A stretch of DNA of 64,000 bases from Candidatus Aminicenantes bacterium (GTDB taxonomy: Bacteria; Acidobacteriota; Aminicenantia; Aminicenantales; Aminicenantaceae): assembly GCA_050115915.1 (NCBI GenBank), contig JASFPP010000001.1:3116-67115 (forward strand), in the 5' to 3' direction. The translations under genes were made by a program, and so were the position numbers. The notes below the pieces were generated by a model. That model searched no databases and had not been told where the DNA came from. It saw nothing but the letters and a program-made list of their open reading frames with translations. Shown one piece after another: positions 1-28,386 of the stretch; within the stretch, counting starts at the first letter, position 1; each line of letters opens with the position of its first letter.

Positions 1-672
1 GATCTGCTGGAGGCCCAATACATTGATATTCGCCATAGACCTTGCTGACAGCCTTTGCACTGGCCAGATATCGAGTACGATCCGAGACTCATCATCATAT
101 TCGATCGACCTGTACGCGTAATTTCCGTCAATACCGATCTTGACCTGGAGTTTGCCGTCGGCTCTTCCGTATACGATTGATTTGAGATGTGTCTCGGGCT
201 GGGGTGTCGGGGGGATCGTTTCTTCGGGAACATCCTCCTTTAAAAGAACTGGGGGTTGGGCTGTCGTCCTTTGCTGGGGACGGAAAATCACTTTGATTCC
301 AGTCTCCACCTGGATGATCTCATAGGAGGGGATCGCCTCCGCCAAGTCGAATACAACTCTCGCAGTTTGGGGCTGGAAACGGCCCACACGGATCGCTTTA
401 ACGTTAAACGCATCAACTTCCTGGGATTCACCTGCCAGGATATCTCCGACGGGTGAGAATTCAACGACAAGCCGTGAAGGATCTCTCAACTCAAAATGTT
501 GATATCCAAATTCTCCATCCACTTCCAGTATCACCTCCAAAAATTCGGGGGATCTCCGGACTTCTACGCTTTTAAAAACAGCCAGGTTTTCTTGGGATGT
601 ATCTGGCCATGTTACAGGTGCCATTACCAGAATGAGAACCCACACTAGGATTATATTTCTCGCTTTAATCAA
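1..672 (-). CDS. AMIN-domain envelope protein, N-terminal part (3' end lies outside the window); likely amidase- or secretin-associated
   Basis: My own translation of the minus strand is open from 672 to base 1 with no stop. It is absent from the ORF track because it runs off the edge. TTG at 672-670 overlaps the upstream stop (TTGA); an alternative ATG is at 624. The N-terminus IKARNIILVWVLILVMAP looks like a signal peptide or anchor. Two AMIN-like beta modules (LEVILEVDG..RLVVEFSPV..ARVVFDLAEA and KLQVKIGIDG..RIVLDIWPV) are separated by a Pro-rich linker. Confidence 0.6.
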   Translation of the reverse strand, partial: MIKARNIILVWVLILVMAPVTWPDTSQENLAVFKSVEVRRSPEFLEVILEVDGEFGYQHFELRDPSRLVVEFSPVGDILAGESQEVDAFNVKAIRVGRFQPQTARVVFDLAEAIPSYEIIQVETGIKVIFRPQQRTTAQPPVLLKEDVPEETIPPTPQPETHLKSIVYGRADGKLQVKIGIDGNYAYRSIEYDDESRIVLDIWPVQRLSARSMANINVLGLQQI

Positions 673-2798
673 TGTTCTCTACCTCCTTGAGATGTATCTT
701 GACCTGTGTTTGAAGGGGGGCCTTCAACGCCGTCTTTTCGAACCATTGTTACAGTATATTTATAGTTTAACGAATATTCAATATTTATGTCTAAATATTG
801 CCGATCGAAATTGTCGAAATTTGGAAAGCTAATGACACCTGGGGCGAATACCTCTGGAACTTTGAGGAGAAGTGTTTTTATCACTTTGAACAAGGAAGAA
901 CTGCTGCCGGCCTTTTTACGATAAATCCTGTAGGTTCTGAATTCGGATCTATCCTGTATCTTGTGTGAGTCCCGCCAAGTGAGGTTGTTGGCTTCTCTCA
1001 CAGAATCCCCGACTTGATCGTGAAGGCGGACAACCCAGAGTCCCTCAGCCGGGAATGGAATTCTGTGGATCTCCTCCGACCAGGATCTTGCCATGACCTG
1101 ATAGCCCTTTTGGTTAGGGTGAACCTTGTCGGTGGAGAGAAGCGATCTCCAGCCCCCATCATTTTGGGGCCAGTCAAAGTAGATATCGAACATATCGACA
1201 TAAGCGACTTTAATCCGCGTCGCCAGATTCCTGATCTTATCATTCAGATCAAAGATTCTTTGTTTGTAAAAAGCATTATCCCATCTGTGATCCTTCCTGG
1301 GGATGATCGTTGAGAGAACGGGGAAGACTTTTCTACCCCGGCATATCCGGAGCATTTGCTCAAGGTTATAAGCTGTTGTATTCATGGAGATATGATTAAA
1401 TATCACATCGTTCGTTCCCTCCATGAGAAGAAGATATCTGACCTGATGCTTATCGAGAACAGCGGGCATTCTTGCCAGTCCCTGATGGGTTAACTCGCCC
1501 GGCCAGCCTTCATTTAAGACAAAAGTAGGACCATAAGATGTCCAGAGAAGGGATTCCAATCGGGGGATGTATCCGAGCTCAGGAGTGTATTGGTAGTCCA
1601 TCATGCCGTAAGTGATGCTGTCACCGAAGCCAATGTACTTACTCTCATCCAGAACGGCCTGTTGTCTGGTCTTGATCCCGGTTTCATCGGATCGGAAATC
1701 GTTTTTTTGAAGGAGTTCTGCGAGCCGCATAACCTGTGAATGTATCTGCAGGCCTTCTTGCCACGTGAGGCCGATCTTGTCTCCTTGGATCGTGATCCTG
1801 GGAGATCCTGCGAGTTGTGTCTTCCCGGAATAAAGGAGGATCTCTTGACTCCAAGTGCCTTCTCGTTGATACCGGCAGGAGAGGAAGTTTTGACTTCCGC
1901 TTGATTGGCTCCAGACGACGACAGGAATTCCGCCCGATACAAAAGACAGGCTGGGATGGACATCCGTGTCTGTATTGTCGGTTATGCGTTCCTGTTCCGA
2001 CCAAGTATGGCCGTTCCAGACGGAATAAAAGATCTCATAATCGTGGCCATCATGCGAACACCATGTGACCCACGGGAGTCCGTTCGCATCCAGGTCGGCA
2101 TCAGGGAGGATATGAGGAGCATCACTTGTTCTGTTGATCTGGAAGGGGGTTGACCAAAGGTTCCCATCCCAGTAGACGGAGAGAATTTTGTCCTTGCCGT
2201 TGACATTGCCAGACCAAAAGATCCAAATTTTCCCCGTGGCATCTGCTAAGATTTTTGGCTGGTAAACACCATCGAAGGAAGGGGAATTGACGAGCCACGA
2301 TGACTCTGTCTTCATCTCTTTGACCAGAAGCTGAAATTGTCCCTCTGTGTAACGAACCCAGGTCAACCATGCAATATTTGAGAGGTCAAAGCAAAAATCC
2401 GGCGCAAAGTGGTAGCCTTTTGGGGGGCTAATGATCATCGGAGATAGACCGGATTTCCCATCCAACCTTGAAAAGAGAATAGCATTATCGTTATCTGCCC
2501 CCTCCTCCCAGATGGCCCAGGTCATTCCTTGACGGTCCATTTTAGTCACGGGGGCCGAAACGCTTGTGCTTGAGAAAATTTCCTCGACCGTGTATTCCCC
2601 GGAGCTGGAATTCTGCCAGGCTTTACTCAACCCGCCTCGCTGATTTTTAAAGAAAAATACCAAATCCCCCGATTTATATATGACAGGCGAGGCCGATTCC
2701 CCCTTTATCCGATGTGTCTCAGGAGTTGTCCCTCGAAGCAGAAAAGGAGGGATGGTCGTCAACAGTACGAGCAACAGAAAATATTGTGTTTTCTTCAT
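669..2798 (-). CDS. Secreted multidomain SGNH/GDSL-family hydrolase (Trp-rich beta-propeller-like N-terminal repeats, SGNH esterase core, Ig/Fn3-like C-terminal tail)
   Basis: 709-aa ORF with signal peptide MKKTQYFLLLVLLTTIPPFLL. SGNH block I is GFGDSITYG and block V is DKVHPNQKGY. About 9 repeats contain conserved Trp (TWAIW, WLTWV, IWIFW, PWVTW, VVVWS, GLTW). Confidence 0.85.
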   Translation of the reverse strand: MKKTQYFLLLVLLTTIPPFLLRGTTPETHRIKGESASPVIYKSGDLVFFFKNQRGGLSKAWQNSSSGEYTVEEIFSSTSVSAPVTKMDRQGMTWAIWEEGADNDNAILFSRLDGKSGLSPMIISPPKGYHFAPDFCFDLSNIAWLTWVRYTEGQFQLLVKEMKTESSWLVNSPSFDGVYQPKILADATGKIWIFWSGNVNGKDKILSVYWDGNLWSTPFQINRTSDAPHILPDADLDANGLPWVTWCSHDGHDYEIFYSVWNGHTWSEQERITDNTDTDVHPSLSFVSGGIPVVVWSQSSGSQNFLSCRYQREGTWSQEILLYSGKTQLAGSPRITIQGDKIGLTWQEGLQIHSQVMRLAELLQKNDFRSDETGIKTRQQAVLDESKYIGFGDSITYGMMDYQYTPELGYIPRLESLLWTSYGPTFVLNEGWPGELTHQGLARMPAVLDKHQVRYLLLMEGTNDVIFNHISMNTTAYNLEQMLRICRGRKVFPVLSTIIPRKDHRWDNAFYKQRIFDLNDKIRNLATRIKVAYVDMFDIYFDWPQNDGGWRSLLSTDKVHPNQKGYQVMARSWSEEIHRIPFPAEGLWVVRLHDQVGDSVREANNLTWRDSHKIQDRSEFRTYRIYRKKAGSSSSLFKVIKTLLLKVPEVFAPGVISFPNFDNFDRQYLDINIEYSLNYKYTVTMVRKDGVEGPPSNTGQDTSQGGREH

Positions 2799-2810
2799 GT
2801 TAAACTACAA

Positions 2811-2819
2811 TTTATACCA
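2811..2819 (-). promoter_or_regulatory. Extended -10-like box TGGTATAAA, 12 nt upstream of the SGNH hydrolase ATG
   Basis: The minus strand reads TGGTATAAATTGTAGTTTAACATG. The same TGGTATAAW box occurs at the equivalent position downstream of T1 copy B. Confidence 0.4.
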
Positions 2820-2867
2820 TAGCAAATCCCTAAAAGCAATCTGGCGCACGGGGCCGGGAGCATCCCG

Positions 2868-3084
2868 AAAACCTGATGCTTGCTGCCTGATTGATCCCAT
2901 TAGGGATTCGAAAACAAAATTCCTTCTGGTTTCCCCTGCGAGGAAAATTCGTTCGGACGCGGGCGCTTTCCTCACATTTCCCATTGGGAGATGTCTCCTG
3001 CCCCATAAGCTCTTTTCACGGTTTTCTCCACCACACAATGGGCCCCCCTATTAGTGCAACAAGAATTCATGTCGTCACGGTTTT
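2868..3084 (-). repeat. T1 structured intergenic repeat, copy A (about 217 bp), oriented toward the SGNH hydrolase gene
   Basis: The reverse complement aligns along its length with copy B. It shares the identical 22-mer ATTGTGTGGTGGAGAAAACCGT (plus-strand 3018-3039 as reverse complement) and the blocks ACATCTCCC-N3-GGGAAATGTGAGG, TTTTCCTCGCAGGGGAAA and GTTTTCGAATCC. The termini are inverted (AAAACCGTGACGACATGAATTC ... AAGCATCAGGTTTT). Confidence 0.75.
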
Positions 3085-3139
3085 AGGATCCTAGCCATCG
3101 GGGAATAGGGGGTGTTATCGAAAGGAGCGAGGAAGAAGA

Positions 3140-4117
3140 TCAAGGCATCCTTTTAAAGATAAATTTCCAGAGATATTCTTTGGGGATTCCGAAAATTTTA
3201 TCCCTCCAGACACGGTCGCATTGACTGCAGGTTTTTAGATCATCGATGTCTTGTGCGAGCGCTTTTTTCCGCAGGCGCTGCATTTTGTCGTTATTCCAGA
3301 TCTCTCGGATGAGGGTATCTTTGACGTTTCCTAAAACGTAATAGCCAAAGAAGTCCTGCGTACACGGGAGCACAGCACCGTCCCAGAAAATGATCAGAGC
3401 GTGCCAGAGAAAAGTGCATGGAGAATAATTTTTGCGGTTTCTCTGACCCTCCACTTCCCCTGCCCAGTTGTGAAATTCTTTGATCTCCAGCCGGTTTAGC
3501 GGGAGTCCCTTGAATGTGTTAGTAAAATCTTTCCTTTGGCTTTTGTTGGCGCGGATCCGGTGCTCCGGGAAGTTTATCAGTTCTAAAATGGTGAAGGGTT
3601 TTTTGCTCTTTAATTCTTTCTTAATTTCCAAAAACCGCACGATATTTCCAACGGTTTTATTAAAATCTCCGTTGATCCGGATGCTTTCATAGGTGTCTTT
3701 ATCATACCCATCGAAGGAAAACGAGAATTGATCGATTCCGGATTCGATGAGCTTGTACGCTTTATCCTCATCCAGGAGTGTCCCGTTCGTGTGGAACTTG
3801 ACGATCAGTTTTTTATCGTGGGCGTACCTGGCCATTTTGAAAAAATCCGGATGGAGAAGCGATTCGCCTCGGTGAAGAAGATGCACATCTGCTGCAAATG
3901 CGGACACCTCGTCGATGATCTTCTTGAAAAGGTCGAACTCCATGAATCCCTTATCCTCTTTTTTGAGATCCTTGTTCGGACACATCACGCATTTTAGATT
4001 ACAGTGATTTGTCGGTTCTATCCACAGACGCACGGGCATCTGTTTCAGCACCACCTTCTGTCTTTTATAACTGATAAAAAGCCCTAGCAACCTGTTGTAG
4101 TATTCAAACTTATTCAT
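3140..4117 (-). CDS. Radical SAM enzyme with C-terminal SPASM/twitch-type auxiliary cluster domain
   Basis: 325 aa. CxxxCxxC motif in EPTNHCNLKCVMCPN. C-terminal Cys set CTFLW..LPCTQDFF..CSQCD. Confidence 0.85.
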   Translation of the reverse strand: MNKFEYYNRLLGLFISYKRQKVVLKQMPVRLWIEPTNHCNLKCVMCPNKDLKKEDKGFMEFDLFKKIIDEVSAFAADVHLLHRGESLLHPDFFKMARYAHDKKLIVKFHTNGTLLDEDKAYKLIESGIDQFSFSFDGYDKDTYESIRINGDFNKTVGNIVRFLEIKKELKSKKPFTILELINFPEHRIRANKSQRKDFTNTFKGLPLNRLEIKEFHNWAGEVEGQRNRKNYSPCTFLWHALIIFWDGAVLPCTQDFFGYYVLGNVKDTLIREIWNNDKMQRLRKKALAQDIDDLKTCSQCDRVWRDKIFGIPKEYLWKFIFKRMP

Positions 4118-4150: not shown

Positions 4151-4969
4151 TCAATCAATAGGGGATGATGAAGCCATGAGTGTTTCGAACAGGGAATGAA
4201 AACCTTTTATGGAAAGCTGTTCAGGCCTTATCTTTTTTTCGATGTCAAGATTTTGAAAAACAGTATCCAGATGGTCGCGATGATAGCCGCCCATGATCAG
4301 ATTATTGAAGAGCGTTTTTCTGCGGCTCTGAAACGAAGTCTTTAAAAAGCGCCGGAATTTATCCTCGTCTGTGAGTTCATAAAGAGGCTTTTCTCTTTTC
4401 TTCAGGGAAAGAAGAGCGGACATGACCTTGGGTGGCGGACTGAATGACTGGGGGCCGATCCGCGCGCGGATGTGCGTCTCGAATTCGTTCTGGAAGAGGA
4501 TCGAGATGGGGGCGAATTTTTTGGATCCTGGGGCTGCGCAGATCCTCTCGGCGACTTCCAATTGAAGGAGAAATACGCAGAACGAGAGGAGCTCTTTGTG
4601 TTCGTAGATCTTGAAAAGAATGGGTGACGATATGGAGTAGGGAAGATTTCCGACGATTTTTGGCTTATCCTGAAGAGGTTTTTTTTCGCTGATCAGGCTT
4701 TTGAAATCGACTTTGAGGAAATCTCCTTCGCGAATGGACAGATTGGGGATTTTTTTCTCTTTGAGTAGAAAAGCCAGCGCTCTGTCCTTTTCGATGGCGA
4801 CAACCTCTCCTGCCCATTCGGTTAACGGGATGGTCAAGGCTCCTTTCCCTGGTCCGATTTCTATAATGACATCTTCGTTCTGGGGAGAGATGCAGGCGAT
4901 GATTTTTTTCAGGACATGCGGATTTTTAAGAAAATGTTGGCCCAGTATTTTTGTCTTTCTGTGAGTCAT
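4151..4969 (-). CDS. rsmA: 16S rRNA (adenine1518/adenine1519-N6)-dimethyltransferase
   Basis: 272 aa. KILGQHFL signature near the N-terminus and the SAM-binding loop EIGPGKGALT are typical of KsgA/RsmA. Confidence 0.9.
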   Translation of the reverse strand: MTHRKTKILGQHFLKNPHVLKKIIACISPQNEDVIIEIGPGKGALTIPLTEWAGEVVAIEKDRALAFLLKEKKIPNLSIREGDFLKVDFKSLISEKKPLQDKPKIVGNLPYSISSPILFKIYEHKELLSFCVFLLQLEVAERICAAPGSKKFAPISILFQNEFETHIRARIGPQSFSPPPKVMSALLSLKKREKPLYELTDEDKFRRFLKTSFQSRRKTLFNNLIMGGYHRDHLDTVFQNLDIEKKIRPEQLSIKGFHSLFETLMASSSPID

Positions 4970-5219: not shown

Positions 5220-6443
5220 ATGTCTATTGATACCGATAAAATAAGAGAAGATTTTCCTGCGTTGCAAAAATCTTATAATTCGAAGCCCATCATCTATCTC
5301 GATAATGCCTGTATGACTTTAAAGCCAAAGCAGGTCACGGATGCCGTTGTCGATTACTACCATAATTTTCCAGGATGTCACGGAAGAACGAACCACCATT
5401 TTGGTGTGGAAACCACAAAAAAGATCGAGGATTCCCGCCAGAAAATACAGAGATTTTTCAACGCCTCATCCAAGGAAGAAATCGTTTTTCTGCGCAACAG
5501 CACCGAGGGCCTCAACCTCCTCGCCAACACGATCGATTTCAAGCCGGGCGATATTGTCGTGTCCTCTGATATCGAGCACAATTCCAACCTGAGACCCTGG
5601 CAGATCATGGAGCGGAAGAAAAATATCAGCCGGGTCATCATCCCGACTCATGAAGACACCATCTTCGACCTCGAAAAATACAAGGAGATAATGTCCTCCC
5701 GGGTGAAGCTGGTCACAGTGCTTGCCACTTCGAACTTGACCGGCGTGTCCTTCCCTCTGGAGGAAATTATTCAGCACGCCCATAAACATAGAGCCCTGGT
5801 TTGTGTTGACGCCGCGCAAAGCAGCCTTTACCAGCCTATAGATGTTCAAAGGATGGATATCGATTTTATGGTCGCCTCCATCCACAAGATGTGGGGGCCC
5901 ACAGGAGTGGGGATCCTGTACGGTAAAAAACAGCTTCTGAATGAGCTCCCTCAGTTTCTGGCAGGCGGAGAGACCGTCGAAGACACGACCTACACCGGTG
6001 CAACTCTTGCACGGCTTCCCGACAAGTTCGAAGCCGGACTTCAGAATTACGCGGGAATCATCGGTGCTGGCGCTACGATCGATTACATCAGACAGATTGG
6101 CCAGAAGAACATCCACGCACACTTACTCGATCTGAATTTCTACGCCACGTCTCAACTTTCTACCATCGATGGCATAAGCTTTATCGGTCCTGAGAATCCC
6201 GGGCTTCGTTCCGGCATTGTGAACCTCCTTGTCGATGGGATCAGCACTGGCGATGTGTCCCGAATCCTGAATGAATCGGAAAATATCATGACACGCTTCG
6301 GGAAACATTGTGTCCATTCCTGGTATAACAGCCGGAAGGTTCCTGAATCACTGAGAATATCCTTCAGCGCTTACAACACCTTTGAGGAGATCGATGTTAT
6401 GACAAATTCCATCAAAAGCATCCTGAAATTCTTCAGGCATTAA
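5220..6443 (+). CDS. sufS: Cysteine desulfurase, class V aminotransferase (SufS/CsdA-like)
   Basis: 407 aa. N-terminal IYLDNACMTLKP, PLP-lysine motif SIHKMWGPTGVGILYG and active-site Cys loop RFGKHCVHS. Confidence 0.85.
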   Translation: MSIDTDKIREDFPALQKSYNSKPIIYLDNACMTLKPKQVTDAVVDYYHNFPGCHGRTNHHFGVETTKKIEDSRQKIQRFFNASSKEEIVFLRNSTEGLNLLANTIDFKPGDIVVSSDIEHNSNLRPWQIMERKKNISRVIIPTHEDTIFDLEKYKEIMSSRVKLVTVLATSNLTGVSFPLEEIIQHAHKHRALVCVDAAQSSLYQPIDVQRMDIDFMVASIHKMWGPTGVGILYGKKQLLNELPQFLAGGETVEDTTYTGATLARLPDKFEAGLQNYAGIIGAGATIDYIRQIGQKNIHAHLLDLNFYATSQLSTIDGISFIGPENPGLRSGIVNLLVDGISTGDVSRILNESENIMTRFGKHCVHSWYNSRKVPESLRISFSAYNTFEEIDVMTNSIKSILKFFRH

Positions 6444-6459
6444 AGGAGACAAAGCGACT

Positions 6460-6837
6460 ATGGCCTGCTGTGCACTTAAAAAACAAAAAAAGCAACTCAT
6501 GATTCTTCCTGTTTTTCTTTTTTTTCTGAGTGTGATGTTCGGTGGCTCGCTCATCCTGTGCCTATCCCTGGGTGGTGTGTTTTCTCGCAATCTTGCCGGG
6601 AAAAGGGACAAAGCTCAAGGCTTGCTCAAAGAGCTCCTCAGAGGTCTGAAGACAAAAATTTTGAACCAGCCCTTTCTGTTCGATTCCAGCGTCCGCTGCA
6701 AGATCAGCGGAAGGATGATGCGCCGCTCCACTCTGTTGGCCGGAGCCGTCTACCGATATTTCAACTTGATCGTTCTGGCTGTTCTCCTGCTTTCTGTTCT
6801 CAGCTTAGTCCAAGGCGCAAGAGCTCTGGGAATCTAA
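6460..6837 (+). CDS. Hypothetical small membrane protein (two predicted TM segments)
   Basis: 125-aa ORF between sufS and the PP-loop gene. AAGGAG lies about 11 nt upstream. Hydrophobic stretches are ILPVFLFFLSVMFGGSLILCLSLGGVF and YFNLIVLAVLLLSVLSLV. I recognise no family. Confidence 0.35.
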   Translation: MACCALKKQKKQLMILPVFLFFLSVMFGGSLILCLSLGGVFSRNLAGKRDKAQGLLKELLRGLKTKILNQPFLFDSSVRCKISGRMMRRSTLLAGAVYRYFNLIVLAVLLLSVLSLVQGARALGI

Positions 6838-6888
6838 AATCGTGTTTTCGACAAGAAATCTGTTATACTGTTCCTTTTGGAGTCACCA

Positions 6889-7698
6889 ATGAAAAAAGAG
6901 ATCATCGTCGAGTTTTCCGGAGGTATCGACTCTCTCTATGCCGCCCATTTCCTGGCACGGCAGTACGAAAAGGTCCACCTTCTGACCTTCTATAAAGGCT
7001 ATTTGCATTTTGCTTTGAAAGCCAGCCGCCCCAATGTTGACCTGTTGAAAAAACTGCATGGCGAGGACAGAATCGTCTATAAGATCATCAATATTCGAGA
7101 TATATTTAGAGAGATGGCCGTTAAAAGCTACAAGGAAACCAGCAAGAATTACGGGAACGAAGTCGCCTGGTGTATCCCCTGCCGGGCATCGATGGCCATC
7201 GGCAGCATCATTTACGCCCTTGAGAACGAGATCTCTGAATTTACGGATGGTGCCAACTGGGAACAGGCGCCCGACGGAGAAAAACTCCTTGTGACTGCTG
7301 ACAATTATCCGGAGTTCTTGGAATCCGTCAAAAGTTTCGCGGAGGAATACAGCGTCCGTTACCTCCCTATACTCTACGACCTGAACACTCGGGAGGAACG
7401 GAGGGACGAACTCCTGAAGCTGGGTGCCAAAATTGACTTCAACAGTATGGACAGGAAGAAAAAGTCCGTCCTGGATGTGTTCGACCGTGATTTTTACAGC
7501 AGAGTCCAGCCCATCTGCCTGTCCGGTTACCTCGTCCATTGGAAGAGAAATTTCTTCAACGTCAAGGAAGATGTCACGCCCGAAAAGGTGGTGGAATCCA
7601 TCAAACCTAAACTCGATGGGGTGGGGAGAAAAATGATAGAGCTTTACTTTGAGAAAAAGAAGATCGATCTCCAAGACATCCTCAGCCACCGCAACTGA
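6889..7698 (+). CDS. PP-loop ATP pyrophosphatase family protein (adenine nucleotide alpha-hydrolase; probable sulfur/amide transferase)
   Basis: SGGxDS PP-loop in VEFSGGIDSLYAA and a Cys pair in WCIPCRASM. The ATG at 6889 is preceded by GGAG; the ORF track begins at TTG 6877. Confidence 0.75.
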   Translation: MKKEIIVEFSGGIDSLYAAHFLARQYEKVHLLTFYKGYLHFALKASRPNVDLLKKLHGEDRIVYKIINIRDIFREMAVKSYKETSKNYGNEVAWCIPCRASMAIGSIIYALENEISEFTDGANWEQAPDGEKLLVTADNYPEFLESVKSFAEEYSVRYLPILYDLNTREERRDELLKLGAKIDFNSMDRKKKSVLDVFDRDFYSRVQPICLSGYLVHWKRNFFNVKEDVTPEKVVESIKPKLDGVGRKMIELYFEKKKIDLQDILSHRN

Positions 7699-7831
7699 CC
7701 CTTTTCGTTTCGTAGATTTTCTTATTTTTCCAAAAGAACATCCGATTTCTTCTTTTCGCCAAAGGATAATCCGGTCTTGATGTCCAATTGAAGGGTGCGG
7801 CCCAATTGTTTACAATGGAGACGAGGTCAAA

Positions 7832-8797
7832 ATGAAAAAAAAGAGTGTATTTATTCTTATATGTTTGTATTCAGCTTTGCTGGTGTTCTGTCAGCCACAC
7901 AATGACAGCCAAGTGGCAGAACAGGTTGCGGGCAACTTCGAAGATTATATGCCCGAGATTGAATTCGAAGGAAAAATTGTTTTCCAGTCAGATATGGATG
8001 GCGACTATGAGATCTATCTCCTGACAAAGAATGGATTGGCAAAGCTGACGGATAACGATTGGAACGACGAAAATCCCAAGTGGTCTCCGGATGGGACAAA
8101 GATTGGGTTTACAGCAAATCCAGACGGGAAATATGAGATGTTCGTCATGGATAGCAATGGTCAAAATGTCGTCCAGCTCACGACAGACCTTCGCAATCCC
8201 ATCGGCCATGCCGGCCATAACTGGCATCCTGACGGAAAAAGGATCGCCTACACGGTCGAACGGAGGAGAGGATTCAGGAAGAGCCACAACATGAAAATAG
8301 TGGATATCCAGTCCAAAAAGATGGTCGCGCTGGCCCCTCAATTGAAGGGGAAGGCGGCGATTCCCGATTTTGCACCCTCAGAACCATTGCTGGGGATCAC
8401 TGCCAAGCGAACGATCGGCTGGGAAGTCGCTGTGTTCGATCTCCGCACTAAGGAACTTTCCATCCTTACAGAGGGAGGAGATAGCTGCCGCCCGCATTTT
8501 TCTTGGGATGGAAAACGCATCGCCTATGTCTCCTCAGAGGCCGATGGAAAGGGGGATATCTGGTTGATGAATCCGGACGGAAGCGATAAATCCCGGCTGA
8601 CCCAGAGAGATGAACACCATGATTATTTTCCTGCGTGGTCTCCCGATGACAGGTTCGTCGTCTTCAGCTCGACCCTCAAATATAACAAAAAATTAAAAGG
8701 GGATTGGGGGCTTTACTTGGTCCGGGTAGATAACAAGGAGATCACCCTGTTGCTGGATACTCCTGGGGGGGATCTATTTCCTGATTGGTACCGATGA
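7832..8797 (+). CDS. TolB-like periplasmic beta-propeller protein (WD40-like repeats)
   Basis: 321 aa with signal peptide MKKKSVFILICLYSALLVFC. Repeated PxWSPDG motifs (PKWSPDGTKIGF, HNWHPDGKRIAY, FSWDGKRIAYV, PAWSPDDRFVVF). Confidence 0.8.
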   Translation: MKKKSVFILICLYSALLVFCQPHNDSQVAEQVAGNFEDYMPEIEFEGKIVFQSDMDGDYEIYLLTKNGLAKLTDNDWNDENPKWSPDGTKIGFTANPDGKYEMFVMDSNGQNVVQLTTDLRNPIGHAGHNWHPDGKRIAYTVERRRGFRKSHNMKIVDIQSKKMVALAPQLKGKAAIPDFAPSEPLLGITAKRTIGWEVAVFDLRTKELSILTEGGDSCRPHFSWDGKRIAYVSSEADGKGDIWLMNPDGSDKSRLTQRDEHHDYFPAWSPDDRFVVFSSTLKYNKKLKGDWGLYLVRVDNKEITLLLDTPGGDLFPDWYR

Positions 8798-8890: not shown

Positions 8891-9679
8891 TCAGGCCGTG
8901 CGTTTCACGTTTGATTTTGTGTAGCGTTTTTTGAACAGCAGGGCCATGACGAGTGTATCGAGCAGGATTAAAAAGTTCAGTTTGGTTTTCCCCCGGGTCC
9001 GGTCGATAAACTCGATGGGAACTTCTTTGATCGTGAAGTCCAGGAGGTGGGCTTTGTACAGGATCTCGAGCACAATGGAGGGATTTACGGATATGAGGTC
9101 ATCCAGGTCGATCTCCTCGAGGACCTTTCGTTTGAAACATCGAAAGCCCGAGGAGACATCGCGCACGGGAATGCGGAATTTGCGCCGGATGAAGCTGCGT
9201 ACAAAAAACGTGATGATCCGCCGCACTAGATTCCTGTCCTCATCCTTCCCGCCTTTGACAAACCTGGAGCCGATGACGAGGTCGTAATCCTTGCATGCCT
9301 CGAGGAGCGAAGGAATGTGTTTGGGCTGATGGGAGAGATCCCCATCCATTTCGACGACAAAATCAGGCCTGAGCTTGAGTGCTTCTTTGAATCCGTCGAT
9401 GCCGCCGGCCCCCCGGCCCTTGCGTTTTTTACGGATGAGGGCGTGGATTCTGTTGTCTGTCTCCCCCATCTTCCGGACGATTTCACCGGTTCCATCAGGA
9501 GAGTTGTCATCGGCGACCACAACAGAGAGATCCACCTCAACATCGAGCGCCAGAATCTCTTCGATGAGATCCTCGATATTCTCCCCTTCGTTATACGTTG
9601 GGATCATCACAACGGCTTTTCTTTTGAGTGAGTCTTCCATCGGACGGTCAGATGAGTTTTTGGATCTCTTCAAAGACAT
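8891..9679 (-). CDS. GT2 polyprenol-phosphate mannosyl/glycosyltransferase (DPM1-like)
   Basis: VVMIPTYNEGENI, ADDNSPDGT and EMDGDLSHQP motifs. An alternative ATG at 9640 (MEDSLKRKAVV) would remove the 32-nt overlap with the GT9 gene. Confidence 0.85.
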   Translation of the reverse strand: MSLKRSKNSSDRPMEDSLKRKAVVMIPTYNEGENIEDLIEEILALDVEVDLSVVVADDNSPDGTGEIVRKMGETDNRIHALIRKKRKGRGAGGIDGFKEALKLRPDFVVEMDGDLSHQPKHIPSLLEACKDYDLVIGSRFVKGGKDEDRNLVRRIITFFVRSFIRRKFRIPVRDVSSGFRCFKRKVLEEIDLDDLISVNPSIVLEILYKAHLLDFTIKEVPIEFIDRTRGKTKLNFLILLDTLVMALLFKKRYTKSNVKRTA

Positions 9680-10742
9680 GCTTTGGAGTGGTGGCCTCCA
9701 TACACTTCATGTCGTCACACGTCTGTTTGTAACACGGAGAGCAGTCCACTCCCGCATAAAGCTTGACTCCCCGGTCGTAGAGGTCGATCTCCTGCGGGCA
9801 GGTCGGCCCGAAGAGGGCGACGATTGTCTTCTCCTGGGCGATGGCCAGATGCATCCCCAGTGTATCCGAAGTAACGACTATGTCCATAAACGATAAAAAA
9901 CCAGCGAACTCGAGAAGAGAGTTGTCGGTCCCTGTGTTGTAGATCTTGTGTTTTGAGTTTTTTTCGATGAATTGGTTCAATTCTCTTTCTCTTTGTCCAC
10001 CCAACAGGAAAATATTGGCTTCGACGTTCTCGCTTAAATAATCGACCAGTGTTAAGTAGTTCAGAGGCGGCCACTGTTTGGTCTCGAACTTCACTCCCGC
10101 ACCCGTATTGAATCCTATGGCCACTCGTCCCTCGGAGATGTCATGCTTTTTAAAAAAATCTCTGGCTCTCGTTTTATGGGAATCCTCGATTGCGAACACA
10201 TAGGGGTCTCTTTTGTATTCGATCTCCGCAGTTTTAGCGATGATCTCCTGGTAGGTCATCGTGTTCTCTTTGAACTTGAGGTCGTCATCGATGCCCAGTT
10301 GATAGGCATATTCCGCCTCTGCATTAAGTGGAATAAGATTTCCCTGGGCATTCATCCCGAATCCGAATTTGTGCGGGCATTTGATAAGGGAGGCTACGGA
10401 GGTAGACGGAGGTTCCTTGTCGAGGGAGATGAGGACTTCGAACTCTTCGACAAGCAGCGGTATAATCGACTCCAGATTGTAGGACAACACCCTGTCGATA
10501 AAGGGATTGTTAAGCAAAAGATCCACACTTTCCTCATCCACAAGCCAGGAGATGTGGCTCTCGGGATATTTCCTCTTTACTCCATGGAGCAGAGCTGTTG
10601 TCCGCAGGACATCCCCCTGCGCCCGGCATTTGATGATCAGAATTTTTTTGGGGAAAGGTGTGTAGTGTGAGCATCCATCACAGAGAATCTTGAATTTACA
10701 GGGTTTGTCTCCTTTAAAGTATAAACAGTCGGCTTTGATCAC
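9648..10742 (-). CDS. Glycosyltransferase family 9 (heptosyltransferase-like) with extra N- and C-terminal Cys clusters
   Basis: 364 aa. GT9 signatures ILIIKCRAQGDVLRTTALL and VTSDTLGMHLAIA. Cys clusters DCLYFKGDKPCKFKILCDGCSHY and DCSPCYKQTCDDMKC. Confidence 0.85.
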   Translation of the reverse strand: MIKADCLYFKGDKPCKFKILCDGCSHYTPFPKKILIIKCRAQGDVLRTTALLHGVKRKYPESHISWLVDEESVDLLLNNPFIDRVLSYNLESIIPLLVEEFEVLISLDKEPPSTSVASLIKCPHKFGFGMNAQGNLIPLNAEAEYAYQLGIDDDLKFKENTMTYQEIIAKTAEIEYKRDPYVFAIEDSHKTRARDFFKKHDISEGRVAIGFNTGAGVKFETKQWPPLNYLTLVDYLSENVEANIFLLGGQRERELNQFIEKNSKHKIYNTGTDNSLLEFAGFLSFMDIVVTSDTLGMHLAIAQEKTIVALFGPTCPQEIDLYDRGVKLYAGVDCSPCYKQTCDDMKCMEATTPKHVFEEIQKLI

Positions 10743-10832: not shown

Positions 10833-11522
10833 TTATCGCAATTTGGGATTTTGAGGGATTGGTTTTTTATGATTTTCAGGAGCTTTGATACAGGTATAAG
10901 CGATATGGGGATACCAGTAGCCCGAATGTTGGGGTATAGGCTCAACGGAAAAGCCGATACTTTGAAGCATGTCCAGATACTCTTTCTGGCTCCGGAAATA
11001 AAATCGTTCGCCCAGTGTGAAGCCGATCAGTTTGACGGCCAGAGTTTCCTGGAAGAGATTCCAGGCGTATTTCCACCGCGGCCTGGTGTCCATTTCTTTG
11101 ATGATAAGGATTCCTCCAGGCAGCAGGGATTGATAACATTTCCGGATGATGAGCTCATGTTTGTCATAGGGGATTAAATAGAGGACGTCGACGAGTGTGA
11201 AAACGTCCCCTTGGGGATAATCCGCCTCGACGACGTTGCCGATTTTATAGGTAATTTGGCCGGCATTGGTTTTTGTTGCGTTAGCGATTTCGATCTTTTT
11301 TTCGTCCAGGTCAAGCCCGATGATCTCTCTTTCAGGCGATCCCAAGCTCAAGATGTTGGGAAAAAGCCCATTGCCGCAGCCCAAGTCGACGATCGTTCCC
11401 TCTTTGGGAAAAAGTCCCTCTAGCTGGAGAAGAGGACAGATCTTCAGCTTGATCTTGAGATAGGCCCGGGTGATGGATCCAGCCTTGCTGTAGTGTTCGA
11501 ACAGCTCTTTTTTATCGATCAT
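10833..11522 (-). CDS. Class I SAM-dependent methyltransferase
   Basis: 229 aa. Motif I is IVDLGCGNGLF. Confidence 0.8.
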   Translation of the reverse strand: MIDKKELFEHYSKAGSITRAYLKIKLKICPLLQLEGLFPKEGTIVDLGCGNGLFPNILSLGSPEREIIGLDLDEKKIEIANATKTNAGQITYKIGNVVEADYPQGDVFTLVDVLYLIPYDKHELIIRKCYQSLLPGGILIIKEMDTRPRWKYAWNLFQETLAVKLIGFTLGERFYFRSQKEYLDMLQSIGFSVEPIPQHSGYWYPHIAYTCIKAPENHKKPIPQNPKLR

Positions 11523-11628: not shown

Positions 11629-13515
11629 TCAATCCATGTAGCGGTTGTACCAGAACTGGAAAATGACAAGCGGCCACAACAACTGCCGGTGGTTGTGTGC
11701 GCCCTGGAGGTGCTCTCCCAGGATTCTTTCGATGGCAGCCGGATTGAAAAATCTGTGCTTGTTTAAATTTTCCGGGGAAAGGACATCCGTGACAAAATCC
11801 TTGAGTTCCTTCCTGATCCAGATGCCCAGGGGAATATCGAAACCGATCTTTTTTCGTGTCAAAATTTCGGGCGGAAGATAGGGGGCCATCGCTTTTTTCA
11901 GGATGTGTTTGGTCGTCAGCCCCTTGAGTTTCAAAGAACTGGGGATGGCCCTGGCATATTCGACGAACGTGTGGTCGAGGAAGGGCACGCGGATCTCCAG
12001 GGAGTTGGCCATGCTCATTCTGTCCGTTTTAACGAGGAGGTCGTCCTGGAGGTAGAGCTTGAGGTCCAGATACCCGATCCGGCTCACAGTGTCATTTGCC
12101 GAACAGTTGTCGAGATGGAAGGAGATGGGAGCGAATACGTCCTGGCTCAATTTTTCATGGACATCGGCCGCAAACAGTTTTTCCCTCTCCGAGGGTCCAT
12201 AAGCCCCCCACCAGATGAAGTTTGCAATTTCAGGAGGATAGTCGATACCCGATATGAATTTTTTAGCTTTGAATTCAAAGCTGAGCCTTTTTCTCGAAGC
12301 AGGAAGGATCTTGACGATGTTTTTAACGAGTCCGTCTCTTATGAACTTCGGCACTTTTCTGTAGAGCCGCGCCACCTGATAGGCTTTGTAGGTGTCATAC
12401 CCGGCGAAGAGCTCGTCCCCACCCTCACCAGCCAGCGCGACTGTGACATACTGACGGGCCAGTTTCGAGATCAAATAAGTGGGGATGACCGATGCATCGG
12501 CCAGCGGCTCATCCATATATTCGATCAGCTTGGGAACCAGTTTTCTCACGAGATTCGACTCCACGACAAATTCCTGGTGGTCGGTCTGGAAGCGGTCGGC
12601 CACGATCTTGGCGTATCCCAGCTCGTTAAACGTCTCCTCTTTGAAGCCAATGGAAAAGGTTTTAATCCTCGTATCCGCCACCTCGCTCATGAGCGCTGTA
12701 ATGGAGCTCGAATCCATCCCCCCGCTCAGGAAAACTCCCAGAGGCACATCGCTGATGAGTCGTCTCTTCACCGATCCTTTCAGCCGCGTGTAGATCTCCT
12801 CCATTATCACGGTTTCGTTTTTTGAGGAACCTAAACCATTGCCCTGTTGGATATCCCAGTATTGTTTGATCTGGACCATTCGATCGTTGACGATCATCAT
12901 ATGTCCTGGCAAGAGTTTTTTTATTCCCTTGAAAATCGTCTGGGGGGCAGGAATGTACTCGAAGCTGAAGAATCGCGACATCCCGTCAAAATCCAGTTCC
13001 CGGGGATAACCGGCCTCGAGGATGGATTTGATCTCGGAGGAAAAAACCAGGGAGTTGTCCGACTGCCAGTAGTGGAGCGGTTTTATCCCCAGCCTGTCCC
13101 TTACGAGAATGAGTGTGTTCGTTTTAAGATTCCAGAGAGCAATGGCGAACATGCCGTTCAACCGGGAGATAAAACTCTCCCCTTCCTCTTCGTAGAGATG
13201 GACGATCACTTCTGTGTCGGACTTTGTGGCGAAAGAGTGCCCCTTCTGGATGAGCTCTTCCCGTAATTCAGGAAAATTGTAGATCTCCCCATTATAGACC
13301 ACCCAGACGCTTTTATCCTCGTTCGCAATGGGCTGGTGTCCTGTAACAAGATCGATGATACTCAGGCGCCGCATCCCTAGAGCGACTTTGTTATCTCTGT
13401 AGTAGCCCTCATCGTCCGGACCACGGTGCGTCATCACAGCGCACATCTTTTTTGTCGTGTCCTCTGCTTCAGGACCCAGGCCGTTGAATCCATAAACGCC
13501 GCAGATGCCGCACAT
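11629..13515 (-). CDS. asnB: Asparagine synthase (glutamine-hydrolysing) family amidotransferase
   Basis: 628 aa. N-terminal nucleophile MCGICGVYG and PP-loop SGGMDSS. Confidence 0.9.
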   Translation of the reverse strand: MCGICGVYGFNGLGPEAEDTTKKMCAVMTHRGPDDEGYYRDNKVALGMRRLSIIDLVTGHQPIANEDKSVWVVYNGEIYNFPELREELIQKGHSFATKSDTEVIVHLYEEEGESFISRLNGMFAIALWNLKTNTLILVRDRLGIKPLHYWQSDNSLVFSSEIKSILEAGYPRELDFDGMSRFFSFEYIPAPQTIFKGIKKLLPGHMMIVNDRMVQIKQYWDIQQGNGLGSSKNETVIMEEIYTRLKGSVKRRLISDVPLGVFLSGGMDSSSITALMSEVADTRIKTFSIGFKEETFNELGYAKIVADRFQTDHQEFVVESNLVRKLVPKLIEYMDEPLADASVIPTYLISKLARQYVTVALAGEGGDELFAGYDTYKAYQVARLYRKVPKFIRDGLVKNIVKILPASRKRLSFEFKAKKFISGIDYPPEIANFIWWGAYGPSEREKLFAADVHEKLSQDVFAPISFHLDNCSANDTVSRIGYLDLKLYLQDDLLVKTDRMSMANSLEIRVPFLDHTFVEYARAIPSSLKLKGLTTKHILKKAMAPYLPPEILTRKKIGFDIPLGIWIRKELKDFVTDVLSPENLNKHRFFNPAAIERILGEHLQGAHNHRQLLWPLVIFQFWYNRYMD

Positions 13516-13590
13516 CGTCTTCCTCTGGTTCCCTAATGTATCTGAACACCGTTAGAATATCAATCCCCAACTCGGAGAGCGGAATTTCTG

Positions 13591-13801
13591 AAACTGTGAC
13601 GGTGATGAATCGCGTCGCGCTTTTGGAAGTTCCAATTGTGTGGTGGAGAAAACCGTATGGAGGGCCGGACGGGCATGGTACATCTCCCCAAGGGAGATGT
13701 GAGGGAGGCCCGGAATCGAGTGAAATTTCCTCGCTGGGGAAATTGAACGTGTTTTCGAAATCAACAATTGGAGCTTTCGGAAAGTCATTCATCACAGTTT
13801 T
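13591..13801 (+). repeat. T1 structured intergenic repeat, copy B (about 211 bp), oriented toward the B12-radical SAM gene
   Basis: Termini AAACTGTGAcggtgATGAAT (13591-) and ATTCATCACAGTTTT (-13801) are inverted repeats with a 5-nt bulge. Core 22-mer at 13635-13656. Perfect 9-bp hairpin ACATCTCCC-caa-GGGAGATGT at 13680-13700. Blocks shared with copies A and D. Confidence 0.8.
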
Positions 13802-13849
13802 GGAAAAGTTAGAGACGCGGAAGGAAAACGTGTGCGGGACATTGAGGTG

Positions 13850-13858
13850 TGGTATAAT
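13850..13858 (+). promoter_or_regulatory. Extended -10 box TGGTATAAT upstream of the B12-radical SAM operon
   Basis: TGnTATAAT match exactly 48 nt after the T1-B terminus, the same spacing as at T1-A. It lies 29 nt upstream of the TTG start at 13888. Confidence 0.45.
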
Positions 13859-13887
13859 TTGAGCCAAATTTTAAACGGACTGTTATT

Positions 13888-15276
13888 TTGAACGCAAACG
13901 AAGTCATCCTGCTCAACCCGCCGGGGGATAAACTCTACATCAGGGACTATTACTGCAGCTTTTCCTCCAAGGCCAACTACTACTGGCCGCCCCAGGACCT
14001 CATCTACCTCAGCGGAATTCTGGATGGAGAGTATAACGTCCGAGTGATCGATGCTATTATCAATAAAATGTCGGAGGAAGCTGTATTCAATGAGATCGTG
14101 GAATCCAGCGCCCGGGCTTTGATTTTCACAACCGGGACGGCAACGATGCAATCGGACCTCCGGTTGATGGAGCGGATCAAAGCCAAGACCGGTATAAAAA
14201 TTGTGGCCAGTGCTGGGATTTTGCCTTTTGTCGGGGAAGATCTTCTCGAGCGGCATCCCTATGTGGATGCCGTCATTCTGGATTTCACGAGCCCGAATAT
14301 TCGTGTTTTTCTCAAAGAAAACGGACAGATGGATTCACCTCTCCTGGGGCTTATCACAAGGAAAAATGGACAGTTTCTGAAGAGCACAGAGATGCCGCCG
14401 CGGACTTATGCTGTGCCTGTCCCCCGCCACGACCTCTTCGATTTTAAAAAATACCGGATCCCGATCGCCCGGAGATTCCCGTTCACTGTTGTTGTGACGT
14501 CGCTCGGCTGCCCTCACAGCTGCGGATTCTGCACGGCTGGTGCTTACGGTTACAGAACGAGGGATGTGGATGGAGTGATCGAAGAGCTTCGTTTGCTGAC
14601 TCGACTGGGTGTCAAGGAGATCCTATTCCAGGATCCCACGTTCACAATCAACACAAACCGTGTGGTCGAGATCTGCAGCAAAATGGTCGAAAACGCGTTC
14701 GATTTTACATGGAGCTGCAACGCCCACATCAAATCTTTCAACGAGGATAAGATCAAACACATGAAGGCAGCGGGATGCCATACGGTGTCGTTGGGCATCG
14801 AGAGCGGGAGCGATGAAATCCTCGAGAAGTATTCCAAAAAGATCACGACAGACGAGATTAAGAGTACGATTCGCATGCTGAACGCTTATAAGATCCATGT
14901 GCTGGGCTATTTTATCATCGGGCTTCCGGGGGATGACGAGGAATCCATCCGGAAGACGATCGATCTGGCCAAGGAGCTGGATATCGATTTTGCTTCATTT
15001 GCCATCGCTACTCCGGATGTGGGCACTCCACTGAGAGAAGAGGCCCTCCAGAAAGGATGGATGCGTCCCGAGGAGGATGTGTTCGACAGCACGGACTTCC
15101 CTGTGCTTGAGGCCGGAACTCTGTCGAAGGAGGAGGTCTGGAAGCTCAGAAACCAGGCAGTCCGGGAGTTTTACCTCAGGCCTTCTTATCTGTTCAAGAT
15201 GATCCGCCAGATCCGGAGTTTGCGCGATATCCAGGTGGCCGTCTCGAACGCCCTATCGCTTTTCCGAAAATCATGA
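13888..15276 (+). CDS. B12-binding-domain radical SAM enzyme (class B; HpnJ-like size and architecture)
   Basis: 462 aa. The N-terminal VILLNPPG.. region looks like a cobalamin-binding domain. CxxxCxxC motif in SLGCPHSCGFCTAG. TTG start. Confidence 0.85.
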   Translation: MNANEVILLNPPGDKLYIRDYYCSFSSKANYYWPPQDLIYLSGILDGEYNVRVIDAIINKMSEEAVFNEIVESSARALIFTTGTATMQSDLRLMERIKAKTGIKIVASAGILPFVGEDLLERHPYVDAVILDFTSPNIRVFLKENGQMDSPLLGLITRKNGQFLKSTEMPPRTYAVPVPRHDLFDFKKYRIPIARRFPFTVVVTSLGCPHSCGFCTAGAYGYRTRDVDGVIEELRLLTRLGVKEILFQDPTFTINTNRVVEICSKMVENAFDFTWSCNAHIKSFNEDKIKHMKAAGCHTVSLGIESGSDEILEKYSKKITTDEIKSTIRMLNAYKIHVLGYFIIGLPGDDEESIRKTIDLAKELDIDFASFAIATPDVGTPLREEALQKGWMRPEEDVFDSTDFPVLEAGTLSKEEVWKLRNQAVREFYLRPSYLFKMIRQIRSLRDIQVAVSNALSLFRKS

Positions 15277-16121
15277 AAAAAGTCATAATCAATGCCGATG
15301 ACTTCGGACTTGTCCAGGGAGTGAACGAGGGAATAATCAAAGCCCATAAAGAGGGCATCCTGACAAGCACAACACTTATGGCCAACATGCCGGGATTCGA
15401 TCAAGCCGTTGAATTGGCGGGGGCCCATCCGAATTTAGGCGTGGGTGTCCATCTCAATATCCTGAGAGGACAGCCCCTCTCACCGGTCGAGAAAGTGGAG
15501 AGCCTTCTCTCCAAAGACAGATGTTTTGTTCCAAGTGTGCCGCACCTCCTCCGTCGAATCTTGCTTAAACGTATAGGCATCGATGAGGTCGAGCGGGAGT
15601 TCAGGGCACAAGTGGAGAAGGTGAAGAATACCGGTCTCTCCCCCAGCCACATCGATAGCGAGAAACACATCCATATGATCCGGCCACTTTTCCGGATTGT
15701 CCTGAAGATAGCAAAGGAGTACAGGATCAACAGGGTACGGTTTATCCAGGAATGCTGTCTCTTCTTACGGCCCGGACAGATGTTGAAATCGATGCTCATC
15801 TCCCTGTCTTCAGCCTCCTTGAAAAAGAGGATGACGAATGAGGGGGTCCGATCACCTGACAGGTTTTATGGCGTTTGCGACAGCGGCCGGATTACCGCCG
15901 CTAAACTTAAAAAGGTCCTTCACAGAGTGAAGGAGGGTGTTACGGAAATTATGGTTCATCCTGGATTTATCACACAAGACATGTTAGAGTTAGAAACGAG
16001 AATCGGGCCTTATTACATCAATAAATACAGAGAGAAAGAGTTGAGTGCATTGCTCGATGAACGTTTGCCAGATGTCATTGCTGATCTGGGGATTCGGTTG
16101 ATAAATTTTAGTCATTTATGA
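15273..16121 (+). CDS. YdjC/ChbG/HpnK-family carbohydrate de-N-acetylase
   Basis: 282 aa. The N-terminus MKKVIINADDFGLVQGVNEGIIKAHKEGILTSTTLMAN is the YdjC signature. The start overlaps the rSAM stop (ATGA). Confidence 0.85.
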   Translation: MKKVIINADDFGLVQGVNEGIIKAHKEGILTSTTLMANMPGFDQAVELAGAHPNLGVGVHLNILRGQPLSPVEKVESLLSKDRCFVPSVPHLLRRILLKRIGIDEVEREFRAQVEKVKNTGLSPSHIDSEKHIHMIRPLFRIVLKIAKEYRINRVRFIQECCLFLRPGQMLKSMLISLSSASLKKRMTNEGVRSPDRFYGVCDSGRITAAKLKKVLHRVKEGVTEIMVHPGFITQDMLELETRIGPYYINKYREKELSALLDERLPDVIADLGIRLINFSHL

Positions 16122-16136
16122 TCGGTCAAAGATCCT

Positions 16137-17129: not shown

Positions 17130-17155
17130 CCCAGGCCCTGGAAGAGGATAGGCTG

Positions 17156-19267: not shown

Positions 19268-19337
19268 GGAATGAATCAAACAATCGAAACTTATCAATAT
19301 GAATGAGCGAACGGAGAAGAAACGAAAGGAGGGTGGG

Positions 19338-20090: not shown

Positions 20091-20111
20091 ATCAATTTCG
20101 ACGAGAAAGAA

Positions 20112-28377: not shown

Positions 28378-28386
28378 ATCCATGCA

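Follow-up and report, generated by a model that had tools for sequence, protein, structure and literature searches.

The radical S-adenosylmethionine (SAM) enzymes DesII, BlsE and SpeY take hydrogen from a sugar or cyclitol carbon and belong to antibiotic pathways; BtrN (PDB 4M7T) is the 2-deoxy-scyllo-inosamine dehydrogenase of the butirosin pathway. BtrN oxidises a secondary alcohol of its aminocyclitol by two electrons, and the twitch domain by definition binds one auxiliary cluster, the SPASM domain two (PMC9012708). Here we describe a locus in a 64,000-nucleotide stretch (the window) of a Candidatus Aminicenantes bacterium genome (GenBank GCA_050115915.1, contig JASFPP010000001.1, positions 3,116 to 67,115), in which three co-directional minus-strand genes encode a radical SAM enzyme (rSAM), a 709-aa exported protein with an SGNH esterase domain, and an AMIN-domain protein. 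A preliminary description of the sequence had placed all three correctly and had suggested that they form one envelope-glycan remodelling unit with a radical step. The reading that we favour, with a probability of about one half, is that of two adjoining but separate units, namely a glycan-assembly array that includes a BtrN-like rSAM enzyme, and an exported SGNH-AMIN pair.

Domains were called with Pfam and NCBIfam at their cut-offs, and folds with AlphaFold models and Foldseek. The rSAM enzyme (3140..4117, minus strand; 325 aa, pI 9.3) is a member of the radical SAM superfamily, with an invariant CX3CX2C motif (C39/C43/C46) and a Pfam Radical_SAM match (PF04055, 1.3e-18, 68 bits against a cut-off of 29.5). 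The Pfam SPASM model also matches (6.8e-15, aa 234-301), and the preliminary description had treated the enzyme as SPASM-type. Only four further cysteines are present, though (C234, C252, C297 and C300; seven in all), which leaves room for one auxiliary cluster, and as judged from its sequence the enzyme is therefore of the twitch type, BtrN-like, with a single auxiliary cluster, and not a two-cluster SPASM peptide maturase. All seven cysteines are invariant in 16 orthologues and in a 30-sequence family alignment extending down to 32% identity, and exactly four cysteines follow residue 200 in 37 of 42 orthologues. The SPASM maturases (PqqE, SuiB, AlbA, anSME) have in common with the window enzyme the match to the Pfam SPASM model and a related overall fold, but they bind two auxiliary clusters through a C-terminal motif of 7-8 cysteines and usually have a peptide-binding domain and an adjacent precursor, neither of which accompanies the four C-terminal cysteines here.

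Among solved structures, BtrN is the nearest relative by sequence and by fold. It aligns with the single rSAM sequence at 1.3e-14 over both halves, the four C-terminal cysteines being in register, and with the family profile at 8e-33, the next PDB chain being PqqE at 4e-16. When the AlphaFold model (pLDDT 88.7) was compared with known structures by Foldseek, BtrN ranked first (TM 0.74-0.77 on BtrN length), with DesII, SuiB, anSME and BlsE close behind and SpeY at rank 31. DesII, BlsE and SpeY match the profile at 1e-8 to 1e-15 over the radical SAM core, and their sequence match to the window enzyme is confined to that N-terminal part. BtrN and the window enzyme both combine a CX3CX2C core with a short C-terminal domain carrying four cysteines for one auxiliary [4Fe-4S] cluster, and both are small (270 aa and 325 aa) and without a peptide-recognition domain. 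They differ in that identity is about 18% and in that the window enzyme exceeds BtrN by about 75 aa, having an additional helix at the N-terminus and a tail at the C-terminus. The window enzyme is moreover a strongly conserved core gene of the whole class and not a secondary-metabolite gene, and it stands beside glycosyltransferases and the 16S rRNA dimethyltransferase RsmA instead of in an aminoglycoside cluster; with RsmA, glycosyltransferases of families 2 and 9 (GT2, GT9) and an AsnB-like protein as its neighbours, and no 2-deoxystreptamine genes among them, it is not a BtrN orthologue.

Typing the enzyme to a subfamily, as the preliminary description had proposed, led to no curated NCBIfam radical SAM family at its cut-off (W-cofactor maturase, AhbC/D, NirJ, spiro-SPASM, MftC, PqqE and others). 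The best match, at 132.5 bits (cut-off 380), is restricted to the N-terminal core, and the sole match of nearly full length is to spiro-SPASM (78.5 bits against 250). The family comprises 1,379 clusters at 50% identity with E <= 1e-30. Functional names were attached to none of the ten distant family clusters that were looked up, and a literature search returned no paper on this family or on envelope rSAM enzymes of Aminicenantes. The orthologues are 62-87% identical and nearly always exactly 325 aa long; across the same genomes rSAM is better conserved than RsmA, with identities of 87/70/65% against 77/46/52%. No signal peptide was found in the rSAM enzyme, which is thus presumably cytoplasmic.

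We compared the neighbourhoods of rSAM in nine loci around close homologues and 80 loci from species-representative genomes (numbered with the prefix L), which were scored against the window proteins by BLASTP and phmmer. Synteny counts for orthologues are based on 25 distinct Aminicenantes loci (rSAM identity 56-87%), with the loci that have enough flank as denominators. The most constant neighbour is a gene absent from the preliminary description, rsmA/ksgA (4151..4969, minus strand), which lies 33 bp upstream of rSAM in the window, matches the equivalog TIGR00755 (239.8 bits against a cut-off of 171), and is found directly upstream on the same strand in 18 of 21 loci; in several lineages its stop overlaps the rSAM start. 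A GT2 gene occurs within 2 kb upstream of rSAM in 15/20 loci, a GT9 gene within 3 kb upstream in 14/19, and an AsnB-like amidotransferase gene within 10 kb upstream in 9/16, while co-occurrence with a GT-C gene is partial (5 of the 13 loci with enough flank). Directly downstream, on the opposite strand, a PD40/Tricorn-like gene is found in 9/20.

The window carries the upstream genes on the minus strand. At the head of the co-directional array are an AsnB-like glutamine amidotransferase (11629-13515), which is nearest to the XrtA/PEP-CTERM exopolysaccharide amidotransferase, and a class I methyltransferase (10833-11522). They are followed by a heptosyltransferase-like GT9 (9648-10742) and a GT2 that resembles polyprenyl-phosphate-sugar synthases (8891-9679; nearest AglJ, PgfS, PpgS and ArnC, all below the NCBIfam cut-off). 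In most relatives, the GT9 and GT2 genes are immediately upstream of RsmA-rSAM. The commoner arrangement is exemplified by L003, where genes for the AsnB-like protein, the methyltransferase, GT9, GT2, RsmA, rSAM and the AMIN protein are co-directional with gaps of -8 to 125 bp, and there is no SGNH gene.

More distant relatives of the enzyme also have a glycan context. We examined 59 loci with rSAM identities of 32-54%, from Aerophobetes, Methylomirabilota, Nitrospirota, Kiritimatiellia, Verrucomicrobiota, Chloroflexota and others, and including Aminicenantes paralogues; all their open reading frames (ORFs) were clustered without bias and cluster representatives were then searched with Pfam. 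Within 6 kb of rSAM, in the 47 loci with enough flank, we found B12-binding radical SAM proteins (15 loci), GT4 (13), NAD epimerase/dehydratase (13), a second twitch rSAM (10), GT2 (8), class I methyltransferase (8), hexapeptide acetyltransferase (6), AsnB-like amidotransferase (5) and LPG_synthase_TM (4). The AsnB-like gene adjoins rSAM homologues in other phyla too; in L035, L050, L040 and L068 its distance upstream of rSAM is at most about 1.6 kb. These neighbours indicate polysaccharide or glycolipid biosynthesis, which fits a sugar substrate and not a peptide. RsmA was found in the fetched flanks of none of the 59 loci.

Several observations on these distant loci are recorded here in their own right. 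A cassette of GT2/GT4, AsnB-like protein, twitch rSAM, methyltransferase, NAD epimerase/dehydratase, hexapeptide acetyltransferase, LPG_synthase_TM and B12-rSAM recurs in several phyla (L030, L034-L037, L040, L067 and L068) and may define an uncharacterised glycan or glycolipid pathway. In a Scalinduaceae metagenome-assembled genome (MAG; L073), five twitch-family ORFs lie inside 10 kb, with twitch-rSAM and B12-rSAM paralogues in the array, and a Caldilineae MAG (L081) has four B12-rSAM genes in a side-by-side paralogue array.

The genes on the other side of rSAM belong together. For the SGNH protein (669..2798, minus strand), AlphaFold domains (mean pLDDT 86.1), Foldseek and Pfam agree on the secreted propeller-SGNH-Ig architecture given by the preliminary description: a signal-peptide-like helix (aa 3-14) and a disordered linker are followed by an all-beta domain that is a 7-blade propeller (aa 30-358, nt 1725-2711), an alpha/beta SGNH esterase domain (aa 384-578, nt 1065-1649), and an Ig/FN3-like beta-sandwich (aa 585-690, nt 729-1046). 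In the propeller, a hydrophobic/aromatic strand motif ending in W or F (WAIW, LTWV, IWIFW, VTWC, VVVW, LTWQ) can be read from the sequence every ~49 residues, starting near residues 44, 93, 142, 190, 241, 291 and 341, and we take it to mark the seven blades. The closest folds to this domain are 7-bladed PLL/PHL sugar-binding lectins, GH145, PL25 and sialidases, and the middle domain resembles thioesterase I (TM 0.80-0.83 on target). Membership of the SGNH/GDSL family is established by a Lipase_GDSL_2 match (PF13472, 1.6e-26, 94 bits, aa 391-568) and by S394 (FGDSITYG), N463 (GTND) and D557/H560, which are invariant in 37 sequences.

Glycan esterases of the SGNH type with carbohydrate-binding modules include the peptidoglycan O-acetylesterase Ape1. 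Like these esterases and the PLL/PHL lectins, the window protein is exported, and its intact SGNH catalytic set is fused to a lectin/glycosidase-like propeller. Unlike theirs, its architecture was seen in Aminicenantes alone (473 hits with propeller, SGNH and Ig-like domain, 35-93% identity), and the best match of its SGNH domain is the generic thioesterase I. As a separate observation, just past the left edge of the window, the related locus L090 encodes two exported proteins of 716 aa (13535-15685, minus strand) and 621 aa (18348-20213, minus strand), which have the ~49-residue propeller repeat and a 'YRIYRK' Ig/FN3-like module as in the SGNH protein, without the esterase domain. Together with the SGNH protein, they form a local paralogous family flanking AMIN and PMT genes.

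The AMIN gene (1..672, minus strand) starts with TTG and overlaps the SGNH stop (TTGA at 672-669), as the preliminary description had it. Its N-terminal 224 aa, up to the window edge, comprise a signal peptide and two AMIN or AMIN-like repeats (Pfam AMIN 1.8e-13, aa 36-120 of the truncated ORF). The remainder can be read from orthologues of 463 aa, one in L090 (12127-13518), with 96% identity to the window ORF across its 224 residues, and one in L001, which is 76% identical over the shared part. By Pfam, the L001 protein has AMIN and AMIN-like domains and no Amidase_3, and the AmiC NCBIfam model gives 33.9 bits against a cut-off of 700. Its C-terminal region of about 170 aa holds a weak match to an outer-membrane beta-barrel, as does the AMIN protein of a second lineage. 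When the L090 ORF was searched against PDB sequences, only the AMIN domains of AmiC (1.3e-7) and PilQ (4e-4) were found; the repeats resemble the AMIN domains of both, whereas the protein lacks the Amidase_3 domain of the one and the secretin domain of the other and has the weak barrel region instead. With no amidase domain there is no basis for the amidase activity that had been suggested, and the protein is better read as a probable outer-membrane protein with peptidoglycan-binding repeats.

An AMIN-family gene directly follows the SGNH gene in nine of 11 distinct SGNH loci (35-93% identity), the ORFs overlapping or lying 3-64 nt apart. A short motif, TGGTATAAA (2811-2819), stands 12 nt before the SGNH ATG, within the last ~45 nt of the rSAM-SGNH spacer, and both this end of the spacer and the motif itself are conserved in the relatives whose SGNH genes are 93% and 70% identical. 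It looks like an extended -10-like box, which would imply a very short leader. The SGNH-AMIN genes are a conserved pair with a promoter-like motif of their own; a consensus scan for promoters and terminators gave counts equal to those of shuffled sequence.

The spacer itself (2799..3139, minus strand; 341 bp) contains one copy of a dispersed element (2803-3135) and no conserved coding ORF. Its short minus-strand ORFs (2805-3038 and 2830-3006) are interrupted by 1-nt indels in the 93% relative and lost through a deletion of 115 nt in the 70% relative. No small ORF is conserved in the orthologous loci, which bears out the preliminary statement that a precursor-peptide ORF is lacking.

That rSAM, SGNH and AMIN nevertheless constitute one envelope-glycan remodelling unit, with the radical step and the esterase acting on the same glycan, is in our view unlikely. 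The three genes are co-directional in the window and in its closest relatives (L001, L002 and L090), SGNH and AMIN lie within 10 kb downstream of rSAM in 6/13 and 8/13 loci, respectively, and among four SGNH-centred loci rSAM is found within 10 kb in three (L090, L091 and L092, not L093). The whole region is also rich in envelope and glycan genes (GT9, GT2, AsnB-like, methyltransferase, YdjC and GT-C/PMT), and no terminator-like site was found between rSAM and SGNH. However, direct adjacency to rSAM is seen in only 3/19 loci for SGNH and 3/19 for AMIN. The SGNH gene is absent in L003-L006 and not within 10 kb in L007, L014 and L022-L023, and other genes intervene in several lineages (PD40 and a phosphodiesterase in L008, PD40 in L091). 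Outside the class the link vanishes: the trio is kept in 0/59 distant loci, and only the Aminicenantes paralogue locus L030 has orthologue-grade SGNH and AMIN genes, 4 to 7 kb from rSAM. The housekeeping genes for RsmA and FtsK share the same regional synteny, so that co-location within one class is weak evidence for a shared function. Furthermore, the rSAM enzyme is presumably cytoplasmic while the SGNH and AMIN proteins are exported, and SGNH has its own conserved -10-like motif. The envelope-glycan context noted in the preliminary description is thus upheld and its functional trio is not; the linkages that are conserved are GT9-GT2-RsmA-rSAM on one side and SGNH-AMIN on the other.

Under the two-unit reading, we infer a substrate class, a chemistry and two compartments from the gene structures, the domain and fold assignments, the cysteine complement and the synteny counts. 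The first unit would be the tail of a cytoplasmic glycan-assembly array of AsnB-like protein, methyltransferase, GT9, GT2, RsmA and rSAM, in whose operon RsmA would be a housekeeping passenger. The CX3CX2C cluster would reductively cleave SAM to a 5'-deoxyadenosyl radical, which would take hydrogen from a carbohydrate carbon, and the second electron would pass to the single auxiliary cluster held by the four C-terminal cysteines. The net result would be an oxygen-independent oxidation, giving a keto-sugar, of a sugar that is to be used, or has already been transferred, by the neighbouring GT9/GT2; the same radical could alternatively bring about epimerisation or elimination. Candidate substrates are nucleotide sugars and polyprenyl-phosphate sugars, the latter being as plausible as the former given the resemblance of the upstream GT2 to polyprenyl-phosphate-sugar synthases. 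In the second unit, the SGNH and AMIN genes would be translationally coupled and driven from their own promoter-like motif. The SGNH protein would be an exported esterase, most likely a glycan O-deacylase, targeted by its lectin-like 7-blade propeller, and its AMIN partner would be an outer-membrane protein whose AMIN repeats bind peptidoglycan.

A number of points weigh against this proposal. The rSAM family is uncharacterised and has no match to a curated family. The distant homologues with a glycan context may be paralogues with other substrates, and Aminicenantes themselves encode an rSAM paralogue of 42-51% identity. The tight coupling of RsmA and rSAM could be functional. The AMIN gene directly follows rSAM in the L003 and L010 lineages, and since no terminator-like site was found in the spacer, read-through from rSAM into SGNH-AMIN is possible. 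In addition, the beta-barrel match of the L001 AMIN protein is below threshold (24.8 against 28.7 bits), and the signal-peptide calls rest on visual inspection and the AlphaFold model instead of a dedicated predictor.

A role for the rSAM enzyme in RNA or ribosome modification, acting with RsmA/KsgA on the small subunit while the glycan genes are mere operon neighbours, appears improbable. It would account for the near-constant position of RsmA and for the overlapping stop and start, and it would suit the strong conservation of the enzyme and its basic pI. In L091, moreover, a PP-loop gene (ThiI/QueC/MnmA-like) lies between RsmA and rSAM and overlaps the rSAM start. On the other hand, RsmA itself is downstream of GT9-GT2 in the same array and is near none of the 59 distant relatives, many of which have sugar enzymes, and in three other lineages the PP-loop gene is unlinked to rSAM. 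The solved proteins closest to the enzyme have carbohydrates or peptides as substrates and not RNA, the Pfam scan of rSAM detected no TRAM, THUMP, PUA or similar RNA-binding domain, and a pI of 9.3 does not discriminate between RNA, membrane or nucleotide-sugar substrates. We give slightly less credence still to a real RsmA-rSAM partnership in which the twitch enzyme adds a novel radical modification to 16S rRNA or a small-subunit component beside KsgA dimethylation, with the glycan genes as bystanders.

We regard it as very improbable that the enzyme is a SPASM-class maturase of a ribosomally synthesised and post-translationally modified peptide with an unrecognised precursor nearby, as might be read from the Pfam SPASM match, the presence of SuiB, CteB, SkfB and anSME among the structural matches, and weak NCBIfam matches to several maturases, since those NCBIfam matches are far under their cut-offs and confined to the N-terminal core, only four C-terminal cysteines are present, the Pfam scan found no PqqD/RRE domain, 33 bp separate rSAM from RsmA and the spacer ORFs downstream are disrupted in relatives, and rSAM is surrounded by glycosyltransferase genes, peptidase and transporter genes being absent. 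The weight beyond the two-unit reading and these three alternatives goes to something outside those considered.

All parts of the locus fall within known kinds: an uncharacterised BtrN-like twitch subfamily, an SGNH esterase of unusual, lineage-restricted architecture, and an AMIN protein without amidase. Should the two-unit reading hold, the rSAM enzyme would belong to a large unnamed BtrN-like family with a single auxiliary cluster, of about 1,400 clusters at 50% identity, whose members lie in primary envelope-glycan gene clusters of phyla that are anaerobic and for the most part uncultured. Twitch chemistry directed at sugars, which has been found mainly in antibiotic pathways until now, would then extend to cell-envelope biosynthesis and provide an oxygen-independent route to keto or epimerised sugars. 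The locus also holds lessons for annotation: a Pfam SPASM match is no proof of a peptide maturase, nor AMIN of an amidase, and a functional unit is not defined by adjacency in one lineage alone.

Systems that decorate envelopes with lipid-linked sugars include ArnC/ArnD/ArnT, FlmF2/NaxD/FlmK and LgmA/LgmC/LgmB. The region resembles them in having polyprenyl-phosphate-sugar-synthase-like GT2s, a YdjC deacetylase and large PMT/GT-C transferases, and by analogy the rSAM enzyme could occupy the position of the tailoring enzyme. We know of no Arn-type system with a radical SAM tailoring step.

In the window, the GT2 and RsmA genes are separated by a lineage-specific inverted insertion of four plus-strand genes (5220..8797), which encode a SufS-like cysteine desulfurase (5220-6443; NCBIfam 401 bits against a cut-off of 475), a small ORF (6460-6837), a PP-loop protein (orf273; 6877-7698) with an SGGxDS motif (SGGIDS), and a PD40/Tricorn-like propeller (7832-8797). 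The PP-loop protein belongs to a family restricted to Aminicenantes (78 hits), and its gene is near rSAM in three arrangements, one shared by the window, L001 and L090, and the others in L091 and L015. We rejected it as a conserved thiolation partner of rSAM together with the SufS-like gene, as it is unlinked to rSAM in L094-L096. The class-V aminotransferase beside RsmA, here called SufS-like, was also considered as a sugar aminotransferase acting on the keto-sugar; this was likewise set aside, the protein being nearest to SufS and part of the lineage-specific insertion.

The dispersed intergenic element in the rSAM-SGNH spacer (~330 nt, designated T1) occurs in the window at 2803-3135 (minus strand), 13517-13886 (plus) and 28353-28531 (plus). 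In relatives it is found in L090 (9664-9996), L017 (2421-2780), L001 (376-564) and L014 (9783-9924), and partial copies occupy other intergenic gaps. The element has no Rfam match (none was obtained in the whole window at gathering thresholds), and the spacer gave only a chance-level CRISPR-DR match (E 0.95). The two full copies are 58% identical and have an exact 22-mer in common, ATTGTGTGGTGGAGAAAACCGT, where none is expected by chance. Each of the two terminates in TGGTATAA(A/T), and the ATG of an envelope operon follows after 12-30 nt, the operon being SGNH-AMIN in one case and B12-rSAM/YdjC/GT2/PMT in the other. T1 could be a shared regulatory region or a repeat resembling a miniature inverted-repeat transposable element.

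The second of these operons (13888-19267, plus strand) consists of four co-directional genes for a B12-type rSAM nearest to HpnJ and AprD4, a YdjC deacetylase nearest to HpnK (193 bits against a cut-off of 233), a GT2 that resembles ArnC and has a membrane segment at its C-terminus, and a 703-aa ORF. Counterparts of this ORF in relatives contain PMT_2; the window ORF was scanned against NCBIfam alone and gave no match there. The set can be likened to the hopanoid HpnI/J/K cyclitol-ether enzymes and to lipid-linked aminosugar decoration of the ArnC/NaxD/ArnT type.

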